Assembly: GCF_011045215.1 (NCBI RefSeq)
Contig: NZ_CP049201.1
Origin: Escherichia coli
Lineage (GTDB): Bacteria; Pseudomonadota; Gammaproteobacteria; Enterobacterales; Enterobacteriaceae
Length of the DNA: 64,000 nucleotides
Direction: 5' to 3' (one strand)
Shown here: piece by piece, positions 12,820 to 29,135 of the stretch
Position numbering within the stretch: the stretch's first letter is position 1
Layout: each line of letters starts with the position of its first letter
Translations under genes and position numbers: made by a program
Notes under the pieces: generated by a model
What the model was told of the DNA's origin: nothing
Databases searched by the model: none
The model's input: the letters and a program-made list of their open reading frames with translations, nothing else

Positions 12820-13362
12820 ATGTCCAGCAAAATAAGAAATGGAATGAATATAACAAAAGTAGTTAAAGGCTGTCTGGTATTAATTTTGATGGTGATTTCT
12901 GGTTGCTCAGCAGATAATTACGACGATTATACTGCAGGTGATCTCCGGGCAATAAATCATATTAAAGGTATCAGTATTAATTGGTTCACCGTAAATGGTT
13001 ATCGGGTCCATGGTTTGGGCGGTGGATATTGCTGCATAATGTTACCAAAGAAGTGGCATTCTGGATTAAAAGCCCGGATCGAGTGGGAAGTAGACCCGAC
13101 CCCCCTTGAACCTATTGCAATGAAAAAAGAAGGTTTTGGCTATGAAGAAGATGCTTATGCTAAACATGCTGCAAATTATCAAAAATATAAAGTAATTGTT
13201 GACATCCCGGAATACGGCGCTGAACGTTGTGGCCTGACCGTTCATTTTCTGCCGTGTAATCAGATTAAAGTGACAACCGTCTGCGAGGGCTATGGCACAC
13301 CGAATTATCCTATCAAAGAACCCCGCGAGATGAAGGAACCTGCAACATGTCCAGCAAAATAA
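12820..13362 (+). CDS. lipoprotein, candidate Tle1 immunity (Tli-like)
   Basis: Lipobox ISGC after signal peptide; Cys-rich periplasmic domain; 3' end overlaps tle1 start. Confidence 0.5.
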   Translation: MSSKIRNGMNITKVVKGCLVLILMVISGCSADNYDDYTAGDLRAINHIKGISINWFTVNGYRVHGLGGGYCCIMLPKKWHSGLKARIEWEVDPTPLEPIAMKKEGFGYEEDAYAKHAANYQKYKVIVDIPEYGAERCGLTVHFLPCNQIKVTTVCEGYGTPNYPIKEPREMKEPATCPAK

Positions 13363-15440
13363 GTGGTCTGGCTTTTCCGTGTTATGCCCCCCCGGTGTTC
13401 CCTGAAGATGGGCGATTAATATTATCTGAAGCGCAGGTAAACGCGAACTACCTAAAACAAATCAATAAAACAGAAGAGCACAAAACCAACTGTAGTAAAC
13501 AGGCTGGATTTAGAATTGGCTTTACGTGTAATCAAAGTATGCATATTAGTCTGTTTTTTGATGGTACAAATAATAATGAATATAATGACACTCCTGGACA
13601 CCCAACCAATATTGCCAAACTGTTTCATACGACCTATCAGAACGCAGAAGAACAGGGATATTTTAACTACTATATACCGGGTGTAGGCACACCATTTCCC
13701 AAGATAGGTGAAATGGATTACAGCAACAGCGGGCTGGAGTTCGCTACTGGTGGTGAAGATCGAATTAATTGGGCATTATTACGCCTCGTGGATGCCCTGA
13801 GCTATTCCATTGACCCTTCCCATAAGCGACTGGATGATAATGTGGCAAAAGAGCACATTCCTCTTATGCGCGCTCCCTGGCCTATGACTGGTGAAGTGAA
13901 TCGTCGCAATGTGATTAACCCCTACCTGGAAAAATTACAGGGACTGTTAGAGCAAGCCAGTCCGCGCCTGCTAAACGTAAAGCTGTTTATCTACGGATTT
14001 TCCCGTGGCGCAGCGGAAGCACGAACTTTTGTTAACTGGTTGACTCAGTTAGCTTGCCCGCAGGAGCAACAGGTGATGCTGGCCGGGTTAGCTGTCAGTA
14101 TTGAGTTTTTGGGGCTGCTGGATACCGTAGCTTCTGTGGGGGCGGCGCATGTTTTACCGGGCGCTGCCGGTCATATGGGATGGGCCGATAGTACTCAGCA
14201 ACTCCCTGATGAGAGGCAGTTTCCCGGCCTGATTAAATGCTGCCGCCACTTCGTTGCCGCGCATGAGCAGCGGCTGTGCTTTCCGCTGGATTCAATCCGT
14301 CGTCCAGACGGAAATTATCCTTTAAATGCAGAGGAAATTATCTATCCGGGGATGCACTCTGATGTCGGTGGTGGCTATCCCGTTCGCGATCAGGGGAAGT
14401 CCTGTGGTGACTCAGGCGAAATTCTTTCTCAGATAGCACTGCATGATATGTATCTTGCTGCATTTGATTCAGGAGCACCACTTGCTGTTTATTCTAAATT
14501 TGTTACTCCATTAATAAAAGGTGTGTCGCCTCTGCGAATTATGAGTCCTTCTAGCGTAAAGGAATTTACGATTGCTAATTCATTAACAAAACGCTTCAAC
14601 ATCTGGCGACAAACGCTGCTGAACACCACCTTGCAGGGTACAGAAGAAATGATTGATACGAGGGAAGGTTATCACTCCTATCAACTTGCCCAGGTTCTTG
14701 AAAGCGCAATTAGCGATCAGATCGGCTGGATCACCGCCTGGCGTATCGGTCGCTATGCGAATAACAGCCTTCTTGTGCAACCTTTTTATATTAAGGCGCC
14801 ACAGCTGGATAAAGATGGACTTGATAAAGAGGCTAAAGCGCGTAAAGAACAAATGGAAAATATTGAAAAAGAGCGGGCGAACAAGCAGAAAGGGAATGGC
14901 ACACTTGATGAAAGTAATCAGGGCATTCCTATCCTTGACCCAACCAATGCTCAGTATCAGTTGCGAGAGGCAGCCCGAGAATTTCAGAGCGATTATAAAG
15001 GATGGACGCGCGATATTAACGGCAGCGTCATGGAGAAAGCCATTCAGATTCTTGTGGATGTCATTCCTAAATATCCGGTGTATCTGATTAATGGCGATGA
15101 TGAAGCAAAAGAATATCAGCAAATTAAGGCTATGGGAGACGGACTCTATCCACAATTTTTTATTGATTCACTGGGAACGGGAACGCGTACTCAGCCATGC
15201 GCTGAATTACTGGCCCTCTATGATGACCAGGTTCACGACTCCCGCGCCTGGTTTATGCAAAGTTCGCTGGGTGGACGTGAACCCTGGGGCGGTTATTTTC
15301 GCTACCGCATGATTTACTTCGGTGATGAGGCTAATAAAGAGCTGAAGCTAATCTCTGCAGATGGCAAAGTTGTTGGCGATCAGCCCACATCCAACCGGGT
15401 CATTTATTGGATGGAATCGAAAACGGTGAGCCGAGGTTAA
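13347..15440 (+). CDS. tle1: T6SS phospholipase effector, Tle1 family (DUF2235 alpha/beta hydrolase)
   Basis: 697 aa; GxSxG lipase motif in YGFSRGA; located in the vgrG island. Confidence 0.75.
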   Translation: MSSKISGLAFPCYAPPVFPEDGRLILSEAQVNANYLKQINKTEEHKTNCSKQAGFRIGFTCNQSMHISLFFDGTNNNEYNDTPGHPTNIAKLFHTTYQNAEEQGYFNYYIPGVGTPFPKIGEMDYSNSGLEFATGGEDRINWALLRLVDALSYSIDPSHKRLDDNVAKEHIPLMRAPWPMTGEVNRRNVINPYLEKLQGLLEQASPRLLNVKLFIYGFSRGAAEARTFVNWLTQLACPQEQQVMLAGLAVSIEFLGLLDTVASVGAAHVLPGAAGHMGWADSTQQLPDERQFPGLIKCCRHFVAAHEQRLCFPLDSIRRPDGNYPLNAEEIIYPGMHSDVGGGYPVRDQGKSCGDSGEILSQIALHDMYLAAFDSGAPLAVYSKFVTPLIKGVSPLRIMSPSSVKEFTIANSLTKRFNIWRQTLLNTTLQGTEEMIDTREGYHSYQLAQVLESAISDQIGWITAWRIGRYANNSLLVQPFYIKAPQLDKDGLDKEAKARKEQMENIEKERANKQKGNGTLDESNQGIPILDPTNAQYQLREAAREFQSDYKGWTRDINGSVMEKAIQILVDVIPKYPVYLINGDDEAKEYQQIKAMGDGLYPQFFIDSLGTGTRTQPCAELLALYDDQVHDSRAWFMQSSLGGREPWGGYFRYRMIYFGDEANKELKLISADGKVVGDQPTSNRVIYWMESKTVSRG

Positions 15441-16275
15441 GTTCATAAGATTGAGGGGTTGGTGACCGGGAAAATGTAGACATGTAGTGCCTATTCACCC
15501 CAGTTCAAACCCATCCGCATCCCGCCATGCCGGAAACTTCACACTGTACTCCCAGGGAAAAATCACGTAATGCTGTTTTTTTTGTACTAAATAATTCGCA
15601 TTTTATGTTCAATAATTGAGGTGTTCCTTATTACCTAAAGCTGTTTTTCATTGCTTATACATGATCAAATACTCATTGCATAATTAAGGGGGACAAAATG
15701 GAACTTAAAAAATTGATGGAACATATTTCTATTATCCCCGATTACAGGCAAGCCTGGAAAGTGGAACATAAATTGCCAGATATTCTATCTGTTAACTATT
15801 TGCGCCGTTATTTTTGGTGCATAAGGCTGGGAAGATATAGATGATTTGGGGAAACACATCCCGATTTTTTGAAGTGATATGGTGATTTTGAAAATGGTAT
15901 TCCTGTTCACGATATCATTGCCAGAGTTGTATCCTGTATCAGTCCTGCAAAATTTCATGAGTGCTTTATTAACTGGATGCGTGACTGCCATTCCTCAGAT
16001 GATAAAGATGTCATTGCAATTGATGGAAAAACGCTTCGGCACTCTTATGACAAGAGTCGCCGCAAGGGAGCGATTTATGTCATTAAAATCCGTCTTCATA
16101 TTATTTGCGATGTCCCTGATGAACTTATTGATTTCACGTTTGAATGAAAAGGGCTGAAGAAATTATGCATGGCAGTCTCCTTTCGTTCAATAATAACAGA
16201 ACAAAAGAAAGAGCCAGAAATGACGGACAGATATTATAGCATTTCTGCTGATTTAACCGCAGAGAAGTTCGCCAC

Positions 16276-18337
<2,062 letters not shown>

Positions 18338-18648
18338 TTATTTTCAGGGATACGGAACATCGCTATTAATATTTCAAAGAAAGATAAGATACTCAAGGCA
18401 GGGGCAAGATGTAAGATGTGAAAGCAGCTGCGGACAGAGACTACCTCGCGTCAGTCCTTGCGGGGGCGGGCTTTCGTAATCTTACTCTGCAAGGGATGAT
18501 GAAAAGTGCAACTTTATTCCACGCAGCTATTTAGACAGCGTACAGTAAACAAACGAAAGTTGTTATTTCAATGGTCAGGGCAAGAGCATAAAGTGTTTAC
18601 TACACACTATGCTCTTGTCCTGGAGTCAGGTCTTGTTTGGAGGGATAA

Positions 18649-19152
18649 ATGGTAGATATTGTCGAGGCCGATAAAACGGATATTTATTTCATTCAGGAGA
18701 GTGTTTATGGCAAAATCGGGTTGCCAGCTTTTGGTAATACAATAGGACCATCCGCACAGCAGGTTGTTAAAAAGGTATTCGCTGTCGTTAAAGAACGAGA
18801 TAAAACACATGCAAAACAGAGATTATTGTTGGAATATAATGGTAACAAACTCTGGATGAATGCTATTGATGGCAGTGAAGCTATCCTACCAATAGAATTT
18901 TCTAAGCGATACGAACTTTCATTATTCAATACTACTAATTTTGGAGAAGATCCTTTTCCTGATGTTAATTTATATAATAATATGAAATCAAGTTTTTTTG
19001 TAAGGTTTGGTGGAACATCCCATCCCGAGGCTTGGGCTATTTATAATGCAAGTACGAAAGAGGTTAAATATATAGAAACTGCAAGAGAAATTGATAAAAT
19101 ATTCAGTGATTTTAACTTGAGTGGTGCATTGCCAATTCACATTGGTCAATGA
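18649..19152 (+). CDS. hypothetical protein
   Basis: 167-aa ORF in AT-rich DNA between ISAs1 fragments; no recognisable motif. Confidence 0.4.
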   Translation: MVDIVEADKTDIYFIQESVYGKIGLPAFGNTIGPSAQQVVKKVFAVVKERDKTHAKQRLLLEYNGNKLWMNAIDGSEAILPIEFSKRYELSLFNTTNFGEDPFPDVNLYNNMKSSFFVRFGGTSHPEAWAIYNASTKEVKYIETAREIDKIFSDFNLSGALPIHIGQ

Positions 19153-19218
19153 TTTTTTAAATTGTGTGATTAAATAATTGAACATTAATGATGATTTATA
19201 GCATCATTATTCTATAAC

Positions 19219-19731
19219 ATGAATAAACGGATTGAATGTGTTATGTTAAAAATGAGTTTATACGTAATAATATTGTTATTTTCCTTTCAGATTAGTGCAG
19301 CCATTACTAGCAAGGAAAGTGAGGTTGTTTCACCATTATTAATGGATGTTAATTCTTCACTAACAATGGAAAATATTTCTGAATTATCCACATCATCGGA
19401 ACCATCGCAACAGGGGGTATTTCCTGTAATATGTACTCGACTTCATCCTGGTTCCGTAATGAAACGCCAGTTATTAACCGGCTGGGGGCCTGTTTTTATA
19501 ATTGGTGATGATCCTTTTTCTCTGCGCTGGATGAGTGAACATCTGGAGATCCTTAAATCGCTAAATGCCCTTGGTTTGGTTGTTAATGTTGAATCAGTAG
19601 AACGAATGGAGGTATTACAGCAGCGGGCTGATGGGTTATTGTTATTGCCAGTTATCTGCGATAATTTCGTGCAAACTCTGCAATTAAATGCTTATCCGGT
19701 ATTAATCACAGAGATGGAAATATCACAATGA
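19219..19731 (+). CDS. hypothetical exported or membrane protein
   Basis: 170 aa with N-terminal hydrophobic segment (LYVIILLFSFQISAA); AT-rich. Confidence 0.4.
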   Translation: MNKRIECVMLKMSLYVIILLFSFQISAAITSKESEVVSPLLMDVNSSLTMENISELSTSSEPSQQGVFPVICTRLHPGSVMKRQLLTGWGPVFIIGDDPFSLRWMSEHLEILKSLNALGLVVNVESVERMEVLQQRADGLLLLPVICDNFVQTLQLNAYPVLITEMEISQ

Positions 19732-19759
19732 TTAATAACATAATTACTGCAAATAATAT

Positions 19760-19990
19760 TGTAATTTTGAAAATGGTAATCCTGTTCACGACACCATAAT
19801 TAGAGTTATGTCTTGTATCCGTTCAGTATAATTTCACGAGTGCTTTATTAACTGGATGCGTGACTGCCATTCATCAAATGACAAAGACGTCATCGCGATT
19901 GATGGAAAAGCACTTCCACACTCCTATGATAAAAGTGGTCGCAGGAGAGCGGGCTTTCGTAGTCTTCCCCGACTCTCCCCAGCCCTAAAC
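19760..19990 (+). pseudogene. ISAs1-family (H-repeat) transposase internal fragment (yafF-like)
   Basis: Encodes [53 protein letters not shown]; paralogous to 15890-16060. Confidence 0.6.
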
Positions 19991-20004
19991 ACAACCCCCA
20001 CTCA

Positions 20005-20781
20005 CTACAACCTAAACTCATCCGCATCCCGCCATGCCGGAAACTTATCGCGATATTCCCTTAACACCGCCATCGACAGCTCCGCATCAATGCGCGTTGC
20101 CTGATGCGCGTCGGCAGTAGCGATAATCTCGCCTTGCGGATTAATCACCCGGCTGTCACCGCGATAATGGCAGCCGTTGCCATCGCTGCCGACGCGATTG
20201 CATCCCGCCACATACGCCTGATTCTCAATCGCGCGGGCCGTCAGCAATGCCTGCCAGTGCAGAGAGCGCGGAGCAGGCCAGTTGGCGACGTACAGGGCGA
20301 GGTCATAATCGTTGAGATTGCGCGACCACACAGGAAAACGTAAGTCGTAGCACACCAGCGGCAAAATACGCCAGCCGCGCCATTCCACAATCACTCGCGC
20401 ATTGCCCGATTTATAATGTAGATGCTCATCTGCCATGCGGAACAGATGACGCTTATCATAAAAATGTACCGTGCCGCCCGGCTCAACCAGCAAAAAGCGG
20501 TTAACCGAACCAGACTCCGTTTGTAATGCAACACTGCCTGCAATCAGCGCATTGCACTGCTGCGCTTTAGCTGTCATCCAGTTCACTACGTCATTTTGTG
20601 CTAGCGACGAAGCTGCCGCTTCCATGGCAAAGCCGCTGGTAAACATCTCCGGTAGAACGATCACATCGCGCCCGGTAATACCTTCCAGTTGACGATCAAA
20701 ATGACGCAGGTTGGCAGGACCATCCATCCACACCAGTGGTTGCTGCAAAAGCGTAATCTTCAAACCAGGCACGGTGTACAA
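20005..20781 (-). CDS. yafV: omega-amidase / nitrilase-family hydrolase YafV
   Basis: CN-hydrolase family sequence with conserved catalytic region; expected neighbour of ivy and fadE. Confidence 0.9.
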
Positions 20782-20925
20782 CTCCTTTATGCGAAGGGTT
20801 TTATAACTTTAACACCTTATCAGGCAGTTGCCTTAGCGCAGAATAAATTGATAACAAATGCTGATATTGGAAATATCTGATTTGCAAATTATCGTGTTAT
20901 CGCCAGGCTTTAGGAGGTTAATAAC

Positions 20926-21399
20926 ATGGGCAGGATAAGCTCGGGAGGAATGATGTTTAAGGCAATAACGACAGTCGCCGCACTGGTCATCGCCACCAGT
21001 GCAATGGCGCAGGATGATTTAACCATTAGCAGCCTTGCAAAGGGCGAAACCACCAAAGCTGCATTTAATCAGATGGTGCAAGGGCATAAGCTGCCTGCCT
21101 GGGTGATGAAAGGCGGTACTTATACCCCTGCACAAACCGTAACGTTGGGAGATGAGACGTATCAGGTGATGAGCGCGTGCAAACCGCATGACTGTGGCTC
21201 GCAACGTATCGCTGTGATGTGGTCCGAGAAATCTAATCAGATGACGGGGCTGTTCTCGACTATTGATGAGAAAACGTCGCAAGAGAAACTCACCTGGTTG
21301 AATGTGAACGATGCGCTTTCGATTGATGGTAAAACGGTGCTGTTCGCGGCGTTGACCGGCAGCCTGGAAAACCATCCGGATGGCTTTAATTTTAAATAA
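20926..21399 (+). CDS. ivy: inhibitor of vertebrate lysozyme Ivy
   Basis: 157 aa, signal peptide, CKPHDCG motif. Confidence 0.9.
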   Translation: MGRISSGGMMFKAITTVAALVIATSAMAQDDLTISSLAKGETTKAAFNQMVQGHKLPAWVMKGGTYTPAQTVTLGDETYQVMSACKPHDCGSQRIAVMWSEKSNQMTGLFSTIDEKTSQEKLTWLNVNDALSIDGKTVLFAALTGSLENHPDGFNFK

Positions 21400-21441
21400 T
21401 TAGCGGATAAAGAAACGGAGCCTTTCGGCTCCGTTATTCAA

Positions 21442-23886
21442 TTACGCGGCTTCAACTTTCCGCACTTTCTCCGGCAACTTTACCGGCTTCGTCGCCAGCT
21501 CTTCCGGATCAAAGTCATCAACGTTAATACTGCGCAGACGGCTTTCTTCCGCTTTCACCAGAATAGCGGCTTCATCTTTATCAATCAGCCCCTTCGCCAG
21601 CGCGTTGTGCGCCAGTTCATCCAGACGGGTAAATGGCAGATTTTTACCCAGCTCTTTACAGATCCGCTGATGAATCGGGTCGGCGGCAATCACATCCACC
21701 AGCGCCTCTTCCAGTAAACCAACCGGGTTATGCTCGCTCGGCGTCAGGTACTGACCGCGACCAATACGTGAACGAGTGGCGTTCGGCACTTGTAAAATCT
21801 TCGCCACTTTATGATCCAGCTTGTCAGACGGTGCCAGATAATGACGTCCGGTCGGGAAGATCACCACATTCAGCAGCCCGGCAACCACGCGGTTCGGGAA
21901 GTTTTGCAGTAAATCGTCCATCGCCTGTTCTGCCTGATACAGCGCATCCTGTACGCCCCAGTGCACCAGCGGCAGATCGGCTTCATTACGGCCTTCGTCG
22001 TCATAACGCTTCAGAACGGCAGAGGCGAGGTAAAGCTGGCTTAAAATATCCCCCAGACGTGCCGAGATACGCTCACGACGTTTCAGGCTGCCGCCCAGCA
22101 CCGCCATCGAGACATCAGAAAGCAGGGCGAGGTTGGCGCTCAGGCGGTTCAGGTGTTGATAGTAGCGTTTAGTGGCATCGCCGGTTGGCGTGCTGCTGGT
22201 TAAACCGCGCGTCAGGCCCAGCCAGAAGCTGCGAACTTTGTTGCTACCGACGTGACCGATATGTTTGAACAACAGTTTATCGAACGCGTTAACGTCATTG
22301 TTCTTCGCTGCTTCCATCTCTTCCAGCACGTACGGATGGCAACGAATCGCCCCCTGGCCGAAGATCATCATGCTGCGGGTCAGAATGTTAGCCCCTTCAA
22401 CGGTGATGGCAATCGGTGCGCCCTGGTAAGCACGCGCCAGGAAGTTGCTTTGCCCGAGCATAATGCCTTTGCCACCAGTGATATCCATCGCATCAATAAT
22501 CGACTGCTGCCCGCGGTGGGTACAGTGATACTTAACGATAGCCGACAGCACGGCAGGTTTTTCGCCGAGCATAATGCCGTAGGTAATCAGCGATGCCGCA
22601 GCATCCATTACATAAGCGTTCCCGGCAATACGCGCCAGCGGCTCTTCAATCCCTTCCATCTTACCAATAGAAATTTTGAACTGACGACGAATGTGCGCAT
22701 ACGCACCCGTTGCCAGCGCTACTGATTTCACGCCGCCGGTTGAGTTGGAAGGCAGGGTGATGCCGCGGCCTACCGAGAGGCACTCCACCAGCATCCGCCA
22801 GCCTTGCCCGGCCATTTTCGGCCCACCGATGATGTAATCGATCGGTACGAAGACATCTTTACCGCGCGTCGGTCCGTTCTGGAACGGTACGTTCAGCGGG
22901 AAGTGGCGACGACCAATTTCCACGCCCGGCGTGGTGGTCGGGATCAGCGCACAGGTAATACCTAAATCTTCTGTGCCACCCAGCAGCTTTTCCGGGTCGG
23001 AGAGTTTAAACGCCAGCCCAAGCACGGTCGCAATCGGTGCCAGCGTAATGTAGCGTTTGTTCCAGGTCAGTCGCATGCCCAGCACCTGCTGGCCCTGCCA
23101 TTCACCCATGCAGACAATCCCGGTATCCGGAATCGCGCCCGCATCGGAACCCGCTTCCGGGCTGGTTAGTGCAAAGCAAGGGATTTCCTGACCACGCGCC
23201 AGACGCGGCAGATAGTGATCTTTCTGCTCGTCAGTGCCGTAATGTTGCAGCAGCTCGCCCGGGCCTAATGAGTTCGGCACGCCGACGGTAATCGCCAGGA
23301 TCCCGCTCACGCCGGAGAGTTTTTGCAGCACGCGAGACTGGGCATAAGCCGAGAACTCCAGCCCGCCGTACTCTTTTTTGATAATCATCGCGAAGAAACG
23401 ATGCTCTTTAAGGTACGCCCACAACTCCGGCGGCAAATCAGCCAGCTCATGGGTGATCTGGAAATCATTCGCCATCCGGCAGGCTTCTTCTACCGGACCG
23501 TCGAGAAACGCTTGCTCTTCTGCGGTCAGGCGCGGCTGCGGATAGTTATGCAGCTTTTTCCAGTCCGGCTTGCCCTGGAACAAGTCGCCCTCCCACCAGG
23601 TGGTGCCCGCATCAATCGCTTCTTTCTCAGTGCGCGACATCGGCGGCATCACCTTACGGAAACCGCGAAATACCGGCGCGGAAATCATCGACTTACGCAT
23701 AGGCGCAAAGTTAAATGGCACGAGGATAATGGCCAGAGGCACCAGTACCCACGCCGACCACAGACCAGCAACGCCGAGGGCGGCTGTCCAGGCGAGCAAA
23801 ATCAGACTGCTGATAAATAAGCTCACGCGGTGATAGAACAACGCGCCGAGCAGGAGAACCGTAGCGAGAATACTCAAAATCATCAT
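21442..23886 (-). CDS. fadE: acyl-CoA dehydrogenase FadE
   Basis: 814 aa from MMILSIL start; N-terminal TM segments, acyl-CoA dehydrogenase body. Confidence 0.95.
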
Positions 23887-27294: not shown

Positions 27295-28044
27295 ATGTCC
27301 TTGCCGTCGATTCCATCCTTTGTATTGTCGGGATTACTGTTGATTTGTTTGCCGTTTTCTTCATTTGCCAGCGCCACCACATCACATATCTCTTTCAGCT
27401 ACGCCGCCCGCCAGCGGATGCAAAACCGTGCGCGTTTATTAAAACAGTACCAAACCCATCTGAAAAAACAGGCCAGCTATATTGTGGAAGGCAATGCCGA
27501 AAGCAGAAGGGCGCTACGCCAGCACAACCGGGAGCAGATAAAACAGCATCCAGAATGGTTTCCTGCACCGCTCAAGGCGAGTGACAGACGCTGGCAGGCG
27601 CTGGCGGAAAACAACCACTTTCTAAGCAGTGACCATCTGCATAACATCACCGAAGTGGCGATTCACCGCCTGGAACAGCAACTTGGCAAGCCTTACGTCT
27701 GGGGCGGCACGCGGCCCGATAAAGGCTTCGACTGTAGCGGGTTGGTTTTTTATGCCTACAACAAGATCCTTGAGGCTAAGCTCCCGCGCACAGCCAATGA
27801 GATGTATCACTACCATCGGGCAACGATTGTGGCGAACAACGACCTGCGCCGGGGAGATTTGCTGTTTTTCCATATTCACAGTCGTGAGATTGCCGACCAT
27901 ATGGGGGTGTATCTGGGCGACGGTCAGTTTATTGAGTCAACGCGCACCGGGGAAACCATTCGGGTATGTCGGTTAGCTGAACCTTTCTGGCAGGATCATT
28001 TTTTAGGCGCGCGGCGGATTTTGACGGAGGAGACGATTTTGTAG
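27295..28044 (+). CDS. yafL: NlpC/P60-family peptidase lipoprotein YafL
   Basis: Signal peptide; NlpC/P60 catalytic Cys in GFDCSGLV and His downstream; 249 aa. Confidence 0.85.
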   Translation: MSLPSIPSFVLSGLLLICLPFSSFASATTSHISFSYAARQRMQNRARLLKQYQTHLKKQASYIVEGNAESRRALRQHNREQIKQHPEWFPAPLKASDRRWQALAENNHFLSSDHLHNITEVAIHRLEQQLGKPYVWGGTRPDKGFDCSGLVFYAYNKILEAKLPRTANEMYHYHRATIVANNDLRRGDLLFFHIHSREIADHMGVYLGDGQFIESTRTGETIRVCRLAEPFWQDHFLGARRILTEETIL

Positions 28045-28120
28045 GACGGATAAGGCGTTTACGCCGCATCCGGCAATTGTGCGCGGATGCCTGATGCGAC
28101 GCTGACGCGTCTTATCAGTA
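28045..28120. repeat. REP element
   Basis: GGCGTTTACGCCGCATCCGGCA...TGCCTGATGCGACGCTGACGCGTCTTATCA. Confidence 0.6.
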
Positions 28121-28220
28121 TCTACAAATTTGTGCGTTTTTGCGAGCTGCTTTCCCGTTATTCCATCACCTCATTGTCGACCTTTCCTTTTCCTCTTACC
28201 GTTGAGAAAAAGGAGTCGCT

Positions 28221-28718
28221 ATGTCGGAATATCGTCGTTATTACATCAAGGGGGGAACATGGTTTTTCACGGTAAATTTACGGAATCGTCGAAGCCATCT
28301 TCTGACCACCCAGTTCCAGACGCTCCGTAACGCCATTATTAACGTTAGGCGAGACAGACCTTTTGAAATTAACGCCTGGGTCGTTTTGCCGGAGCATATG
28401 CATTGCATATGGACATTACCCGAAAGCGATGATGATTTTTCCTCTCGCTGGCGGGAGATTAAAAAGCAATTCACCCATGCTTGTGGATTGAAAAATATCT
28501 GGCAACCGCGTTTTTGGGAGCATGCCATTCGTAATACAAAAGACTATCGCCATCATGTTGATTATATTTATATAAATCCAGTGAAACATGGTTGGGTAAA
28601 GCAGGTGAGTGATTGGCCATTCTCAACGTTCCATCGCGATGTAGCGCGAGGGTTATATCCCATCAATTGGGCGGGAGACGTTACGGATTTGAGTGCCGGG
28701 GAGCGTATTATTTTATAA
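28221..28718 (+). CDS. rayT: REP-associated tyrosine transposase RayT (IS200/IS605-like HuH)
   Basis: 165 aa, HuH motif region (PEHMHCIW), flanked by REP clusters. Confidence 0.85.
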   Translation: MSEYRRYYIKGGTWFFTVNLRNRRSHLLTTQFQTLRNAIINVRRDRPFEINAWVVLPEHMHCIWTLPESDDDFSSRWREIKKQFTHACGLKNIWQPRFWEHAIRNTKDYRHHVDYIYINPVKHGWVKQVSDWPFSTFHRDVARGLYPINWAGDVTDLSAGERIIL

Positions 28719-28719
28719 T

Positions 28720-29135
<416 letters not shown>

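Follow-up and report, generated by a model that had tools for sequence, protein, structure and literature searches.

Within the window, by which we mean the whole stretch of 64,000 nucleotides of Escherichia coli DNA that was analysed (contig NZ_CP049201.1), the type VI secretion effector gene tle1 is followed by a second copy of the 3′ end of yafV, here called copy 1. In our reading, to which we give a probability of about 0.8, copy 1 is a non-functional scar of transfer, namely the last 58–59 bp of a Pseudocitrobacter-like yafV that came with tle1 and that ends at an ISAs1-family element. Between it and the intact resident yafV lies a block of IS sequences and two further ORFs (Table 1).

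Table 1. Features of the window between tle1 and the resident yafV
Feature	Position	Strand	Remarks
tle1, type VI secretion phospholipase effector, 697 aa	13347–15440	+	ORF; Tle1-like annotation in homologous E. coli loci
tle1–yafV′ intergenic spacer, 54 bp	15441–15494		aligns to the tle1–yafV spacers of L086 and ChlosBP-23-1
Copy 1, 3′-terminal remnant of a probable xenologous (Pseudocitrobacter-type) yafV	15495–15552	−	truncated at the ISAs1 left end
28 bp exact repeat, copy 1	15512–15539
ISAs1-family element (ISEc1/H-repeat-like), left terminal repeat CAGGGAAA... and 5′ part of decayed transposase gene	15553–16275	+
IS100, 1,954 bp	16276–18229	−	inserted in the ISAs1 pseudogene; 99.9 % identical to annotated IS100 copies
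istB	16342–17124		within IS100; IstB match
istA	17121–18143		within IS100; IS21-family transposase match
ISAs1 pseudogene, continued past IS100	18230–~18421	+	collinear with A30 (L001 5771–5962); end approximate, from the A30 annotation
ORF without family assignment, 167 aa, 34.7 % GC	18649–19152	+	annotated as hypothetical in E. coli
Orphan gene, PFL_4695/DUF2859 family of integrating-conjugative-element proteins, 170 aa, 37.4 % GC	19219–19731	+
Internal ISAs1 transposase fragment, 196 bp	19756–19951	+	82 % identical to 15877–16072
Native Escherichia sequence downstream of yafV	19952–20004		between the ISAs1 fragment and the yafV stop codon; aligned to E. albertii
Resident intact yafV (2-oxoglutaramate amidase)	20005–20772	−	stop codon TAG 20005–20007; yafV annotation in every homologous locus
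28 bp exact repeat, copy 2	20019–20046		inside yafV

The yafV remnant downstream of tle1

A preliminary description of this region had reported that a 28 bp string, CATCCGCATCCCGCCATGCCGGAAACTT, occurs both in yafV and beyond tle1, and an exact search of the whole window returned precisely these two sites, with no third site and no further match elsewhere in the window when up to three mismatches were allowed. It had also been proposed that the string beyond tle1 belongs to a second yafV 3′ end on the minus strand, and this holds: copy 1 reads as an in-frame yafV tail on both sides of the 28-mer and runs to a TGA stop codon (15495–15497). Though the homology is real, the span of 15480–15545 originally assigned to it is slightly offset. 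The homologous stretch extends over 15495–15552/3 (58–59 bp), base 15553 being assignable either to the remnant or to ISAs1.

The two 28-mers are 4.5 kb apart and their immediate flanks in the window are just 50–64 % identical, C/A-rich and compositionally biased, as might be expected if the 28-mer and its flanks matched by accident and had no common origin. However, none of 100 dinucleotide-preserving shuffles gave any match to the 28-mer (none is expected by chance), the yafV frame stays open in copy 1 as far as the stop codon, and copy 1 is 93 % identical over 59 bp to the real yafV end of another genus, found there in the same position relative to tle1. These three observations leave accident with a negligible probability, and a chance repeat was ruled out; the short repeat lacking any flanking similarity that the preliminary description had allowed for is not what was found, the homology of the flanks being real.

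The remnant is truncated, has no coding capacity of its own and is non-functional. It retains 18 codons, the longest ORF overlapping it is 23 aa, and it contains no Rfam match, no terminator-like site and no promoter-like site. A functional RNA, a terminator and a small gene were each considered and set aside, the ORF, Rfam and terminator searches having returned nothing. The 54 bp that separate its stop codon from the end of tle1 at 15440 likewise include no Rfam match and no terminator-like site. The window holds no yafV-like pieces other than copies 1 and 2, and nothing of the rest of the foreign yafV.

Affinity of the remnant and of the tle1 module

The yafV loci of 80 of at least 596 yafV relatives in species-representative genomes were compared, and the 3′ tails of 25 of these were read; Salmonella, Klebsiella proper and others lie outside this survey. 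Copy 1 matches the yafV ends of Pseudocitrobacter faecalis (L011) and of a metagenome contig (L086, described below) at 55 of 59 bases each, as against 46–48 of 59 for the E. coli yafV alleles, 44 of 59 for E. albertii and 41 of 59 for a cryptic-clade Escherichia. The encoded tail is GFELG* in copy 1 and in P. faecalis, EFRL* or EFRLW* in the resident E. coli genes and GFRLL* in E. albertii. Among the 25 species tails read from the 80 loci, GFELG* was present in Pseudocitrobacter only, though it could be common to another genus as well, because the tails come from 25 of the 80 loci and Salmonella and Klebsiella proper fall outside the sample. The whole resident yafV is only 80.8 % identical to that of P. 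faecalis.

Because copy 1 shares 55 of 59 bases with the Pseudocitrobacter-type end and 46–48 of 59 with the E. coli alleles, a foreign ortholog resembles it more than do the resident gene and the alleles within the genus, and it is, judging by its sequence, a xenolog and not a diverged copy of the resident yafV. Hence, of the earlier proposal of a divergent duplicate with flanking similarity, the flanking homology stands and the duplication of the resident gene does not.

The 28-mer of E. coli itself is identical to that of Pseudocitrobacter and differs from that of E. albertii at four sites, and gene conversion between the two copies, or an earlier mosaic origin of the end of the resident yafV, may have contributed to this. 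One codon in the yafV end is CGG (Arg) in E. coli and Pseudocitrobacter and CAG (Gln) in most relatives, a sharing that would suit gene conversion of the resident 28-mer by copy 1. Such conversion is not claimed here, as E. coli is polymorphic at this codon and a single transition explains the difference. A30 and MS1170 have CAG, while the window, SF-173 and Pseudocitrobacter have CGG, and because of this polymorphism of the resident gene the two copies are identical at 28 of 28 positions in some strains and at 27 of 28 in others. The resident yafV end is also polymorphic at its stop, where the window has TAG (EFRL*) and other alleles have TGG followed by TGA (EFRLW*; L001, L088 and L004 were compared).

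A tle1 gene adjoining yafV was found in none of the 80 species-representative loci, and this layout was obtained only when metagenome contigs were scanned for the exact pattern of the GFELG*-type end. Two contigs were returned, L086 and L087. The second, L087, is an E. coli-type contig with the same remnant–ISAs1 junction as the window. The first, L086 (AGFS01075944.1, 4,670 bp), carries DUF3304, tle1, the 54 bp spacer, a full-length yafV and ivy in that order. Its yafV and ivy are 95 % identical to those of P. faecalis, and its yafV–ivy–fadE backbone shares no more than 81.6 % identity with any of 5,426 complete E. coli genomes. The alignment of L086 to the window covers 13018–15553 and so ends exactly at the ISAs1 left end, and over tle1, when taken per 200 bp, the two are 69–98.5 % identical, with the 3′ half mostly at 95–98.5 %. 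This one 4.7 kb contig, from which the donor-type layout is known, differs from copy 1 at 4 of the 59 positions.

The remnant is, then, contiguous in the window with DNA that appears to have the same foreign affinity, and the donor layout is seen intact elsewhere; tle1 is the last gene of the imported module, and the 54 bp spacer was, from its alignment, probably inherited along with the remnant. Because identities mostly of 95–98.5 % in the 3′ half of tle1 contrast with no more than 81.6 % for the backbone, the tle1 module and the 59 bp remnant have a cross-genus ancestor much more recent than that of the backbone. As the stranded piece of backbone is Pseudocitrobacter-type, the transfer was most simply into E. 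coli, and we infer a Pseudocitrobacter-like donor. In P. faecalis the aspV tRNA gene comes immediately after yafV and represents an empty site, and it is at aspV that the type VI island of E. coli sits (PMC2941450; PMC5363993).

Two further observations concern the module itself. Two patches of tle1, 13608–13807 (80 %) and 14407–14606 (69 %), are divergent from L086, the rest being 89–98.5 % identical, which points to a mosaic tle1. The DUF3304 (Tli1-type immunity) genes that precede tle1 vary, with four ORFs annotated in ChlosBP-23-1 (L002 2795–4414), at least three in MS1170 (L088 1–1363) and one confirmed in the window (12820–13362).

The ISAs1 boundary, the IS-rich block and a genome that lacks it

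When the ISAs1 left end in the window was aligned with four others from different contexts (the ybfQ/ybfD locus, galF, the SF-173 island and A30), agreement among the five was found to start at CAGGGAAA (CAGGG), that is at position 15553, and to continue into MELKKLME.... The remnant is therefore cut flush against the ISAs1 left terminal repeat and not at a yafV boundary. The truncating element has both this shared terminal sequence and a transposase gene of the family and is assigned to the ISAs1 family, and an ISAs1 pseudogene is annotated at the homologous loci of A30, MS1170, SF-173 and EC2641 (RefSeq: ISAs1 family transposase). Its transposase gene is frameshifted and truncated and its right end is absent, and with it any target duplication to compare, which leaves an insertion of ISAs1 into the foreign yafV as a putative event.

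In the MS1170-type carriers, the ISAs1 left end is doubled (L088 3553–3600 and L087 432–480, corresponding to window 15553–15580). There, after a 19 bp terminal-repeat start, CAGGGAAAGGTCAAGTAAT, come a second start, CAGGGAAAGATCA..., and 12 unrelated bases, which makes these carriers a net 18 bp longer here than the window and suggests repeated ISAs1 activity at the junction.

The content of the approximately 4.5 kb between the copies was originally given as IS100, ISAs1 fragments and two orphan ORFs, and annotation and family searches agree. IS100 is bordered by a 5 bp target duplication, GCCAC (16271–16275 and 18230–18234), and occurs at this site in not one of the 5,426 complete E. coli genomes; EC2641, which matches the junction most closely, instead has IS903B inside tle1. 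Of the two ORFs, that of 167 aa has no Pfam or NCBIfam match and that of 170 aa matches Pfam DUF2859 (2e-28) and NCBIfam TIGR03765 (2e-35). Both (18649–19731) are of low GC content (35–37 %) and are kept in 542 E. coli genomes, and the second has no other integrating conjugative element (ICE) genes nearby. Together they have the look of an ICE fragment left stranded. No integrase was found in the bracketed segment. The 28-mer was also considered as an IS target duplication and rejected: the ISAs1 left end is 13 bp away from copy 1 and the truncated internal ISAs1 fragment 67 bp away from copy 2, the copies are 4.5 kb apart, and IS100 has a duplication of its own.

It had been suggested that the IS-rich block (15545–20005) was inserted or exchanged at the yafV terminus. 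The distribution of the block does not bear this out. With presence defined as at least 80 % of the ORF without a family, the PFL_4695 ORF, the ISAs1 fragment and the yafV junction, the block was found in 542 of 5,426 complete E. coli genomes, as against 66 of 5,426 for the tle1–remnant–ISAs1 junction, and in SF-173 it stands behind a VgrG–DUF2169–PAAR module and is not accompanied by the remnant. Window positions 19755–21497 align with E. albertii (L006) at 85.6 % identity, unbroken across the junction of the ISAs1 fragment and yafV, and E. albertii has the ISAs1 left end and 5′ part with no yafV remnant alongside. The right truncation point of the ISAs1 fragment thus appears to be an old junction with the region downstream of yafV. 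Because this junction is shared with E. albertii, the block is the more widely distributed of the two and SF-173 has it without the remnant, the block was probably not inserted at the yafV terminus and is, on these comparisons, older than the remnant. It is the tle1 segment, with the 59 bp of foreign yafV attached to it, that more likely arrived later.

A block that arrived by Campbell-type integration, duplicating the yafV end so that yafV now ends in a tail brought by the element while copy 1 represents its original end, displaced, would account for direct repeats of a gene 3′ end that bracket mobile-element genes, an orphan ICE-family ORF included. Yet the resident tail (EFRL*/EFRLW*) is of the Escherichia type, and since E. 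albertii (GFRLL*) has the same downstream sequence and the same ISAs1-fragment junction, it appears to be native and not element-borne; the supposedly displaced copy is the foreign one. In addition, the homology around copy 1 exceeds the 28-mer and has its limit at the ISAs1 terminal repeat. The E. albertii junction already goes most of the way to refuting arrival of the block at the yafV terminus, which is very unlikely. The 28-mer was likewise rejected as the att core of an integrative element, as the segment contains no integrase and is not a mobile unit always found with the repeat, being older and wider spread, and the intact gene has a native tail.

The E. albertii locus differs in one further respect, in that it contains one contiguous ISAs1 5′ fragment (L006 6800–7316), which starts with the terminal repeat and is truncated next to yafV at the same point, where E. 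coli has two overlapping ISAs1 pieces parted by the two ORFs. The E. coli block would therefore have arisen by rearrangement within an older ISAs1 fragment. Elsewhere, approximately 135 bp of the E. albertii sequence (L006 1931–2064) match five overlapping or adjacent places in window 28041–29114 at a spacing of about 100 bp, which indicates a tandem array of an intergenic repeat.

The preliminary description had also called for a comparison with genomes that lack the segment between the copies. When a synthetic deletion product, tle1 fused to yafV, was used to query the 5,426 complete E. coli genomes, a single end-to-end match was obtained, in ChlosBP-23-1. In this genome, tle1 and 54 bp are followed directly by an intact yafV with a hybrid end, the product of which terminates in GFELG*. 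Past the 28-mer, the body of this yafV is E. coli-type (GGGAATATAGAGAA), whereas the remnant of the carriers has GGGAGTACAG(T/A)GTG and the donor has GGGAGTATAGAGAG. The left flank differs from that of the carrier MS1170 at 5 of 3,554 positions, of which, as we read the alignment, four are in the last 14 bp and the fifth is a C-to-T change private to ChlosBP-23-1 inside the 28-mer. On the right flank, the best match (99.0 %) is again with this tle1-carrying group. ChlosBP-23-1 is best explained as a derived chimera formed by a crossover between the two yafV ends. With MS1170 as the model of the parent, the crossover would fall within the last 16 bp of the 28-mer, because copy 2 of MS1170 differs at one position upstream, and it may have occurred either as an intragenomic deletion or in an exchange during import of the module from a carrier. 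The part of the original interpretation in which copy 1 marks an old junction of the island with yafV survives to the extent that tle1 once stood directly against yafV, as it does in L086 and ChlosBP-23-1, though the yafV concerned would not be a duplicate of the resident gene.

ChlosBP-23-1, with a single hybrid site and an intact yafV, resembles the precise empty product that integration of the block would imply. However, its closest relatives on both flanks have the duplication, which makes it look derived and not ancestral. The same genome could be seen as the survivor of a state in which tle1–yafV with the GFELG* tail was ancestral in E. coli, ISAs1 then striking yafV 59 bp from its end and an intact yafV being restored later by recombination with a lineage that carried the ISAs1 block and an intact gene. 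The remnant does end exactly at the ISAs1 terminal repeat, as insertion would give, ISAs1 copies are abundant in E. coli and constitute portable homology, and a gene with this tail is intact in ChlosBP-23-1. We nevertheless regard this history as improbable. Because the remnant has donor-type bases where the body of the ChlosBP-23-1 gene is E. coli-type, it did not come from a ChlosBP-like gene. This genome is also one in 5,426 and sits among carriers of the duplication, and GFELG* was unseen in the other Escherichia species sampled. It is only the ancestry in E. coli that is disfavoured, and ISAs1 insertion followed by repair may still be the joining mechanism.

Import from a Pseudocitrobacter-like donor, the reading that we prefer, would have proceeded as follows. 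The donor would have had a type VI island at the same aspV–yafV site, with tle1 as its last gene converging directly on yafV. A segment composed of DUF3304 (Tli1-type immunity), tle1, the 54 bp spacer and the donor yafV end would then have passed into E. coli, into a lineage already equipped with a yafV of its own and with the old block (the ISAs1 5′ part, the ORF without a family, the PFL_4695 ORF and the ISAs1 fragment), and would have come to end flush on the left terminal repeat of the block's ISAs1. For this joining step we infer one of two routes. Either the incoming yafV took an ISAs1 insertion 59 bp from its end and recombination with the resident ISAs1 followed, the resident yafV being kept, or the incoming segment brought more of the foreign yafV and was trimmed by an IS-associated deletion. 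A longer foreign yafV, or ISAs1 inside a full foreign yafV, was found in none of the 5,426 complete E. coli genomes. The 28 bp identity would simply be the best-conserved stretch of two orthologous gene ends, with flanks that differ because one is Pseudocitrobacter-type and the other Escherichia-type. Later, IS100 would have entered the ISAs1 pseudogene in the lineage of the window and, in that of ChlosBP-23-1, a crossover in the 28-mer would have removed the block and joined the foreign tail to the resident yafV body in a chimeric intact gene.

Implications and comparison with known systems

An identity of 28 bp is about the minimal length for efficient RecA-dependent exchange. It is conceivable, though we consider it rather doubtful, that the yafV 3′ end serves as the right-hand homology anchor for swaps of type VI effector cassettes at aspV–yafV, both between genera and within E. 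coli. If so, the 28-mer would have been used at least once, in ChlosBP-23-1, to join the tle1 module to the resident yafV with a chimeric enzyme tail as the outcome, and stranded gene ends would be a general tracer of the donors of effector modules.

More immediately, the scar offers unusually direct evidence on the source of an antibacterial toxin module, as it suggests that E. coli and a Pseudocitrobacter-like lineage exchanged the Tle1 effector/immunity module now seen in approximately 1 % of complete E. coli genomes. It also calls for caution in annotation, in that the repeat should not be taken for an att site, nor the IS block for a discrete island. As a small example of a short-homology crossover giving a chimeric gene, it implies no new mechanism or function, changes little beyond this tracing and annotation use, and is of modest interest only as a tracer of the exchange of effector modules between genera. 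A literature search confirmed the location of the aspV island and found no description of this remnant or of its Pseudocitrobacter-like affinity. The kind of event, a xenologous gene-end scar with ISAs1 at the breakpoint, is known in principle, and the present scar, though real, is ordinary.

Duplicated 3′ ends of target genes border integrated elements such as e14 and phage 21 in icd, and islands flanked by att repeats in tRNA genes. As in those systems, two direct copies of a gene 3′ end bracket mobile DNA here, one gene being intact and the other stranded, and where the block is lost, one hybrid gene end is left, as seen in ChlosBP-23-1. Unlike them, the segment lacks both an integrase and a replacement end carried by the element; the native tail is on the intact gene and the stranded copy is the foreign one, and the remnant ends at an IS terminal repeat and not at an att core, beside a block older than itself.

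Rearrangements associated with the H-repeat/ISAs1 group (ISEc1) were reportedly described by Xiang and co-workers in 1994 and Zhao and co-workers in 1993, in the hybrid O-antigen cluster of group D2 Salmonella and at the ends of Rhs elements. The present case is similar in that DNA of apparently two origins meets exactly at an ISAs1-family element. It differs in that the copy is a decayed 5′ fragment with neither a second breakpoint nor a target duplication, and its role in forming the junction is correspondingly conjectural.

A parallel at the same locus, from the island to yafV, is the swapping of effector/immunity modules at the variable end of the E. coli type VI island, which is located at aspV (PMC2941450; PMC5363993). 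Strains differ in the terminal cargo that they have ahead of one and the same downstream block, DUF3304–tle1 in the window and VgrG–DUF2169–PAAR in SF-173. In contrast to other exchanges at this island, the module described here seems to have brought with it a piece of the donor's chromosomal backbone, and that piece would both identify a donor of another genus and place the donor's island at the same chromosomal site.
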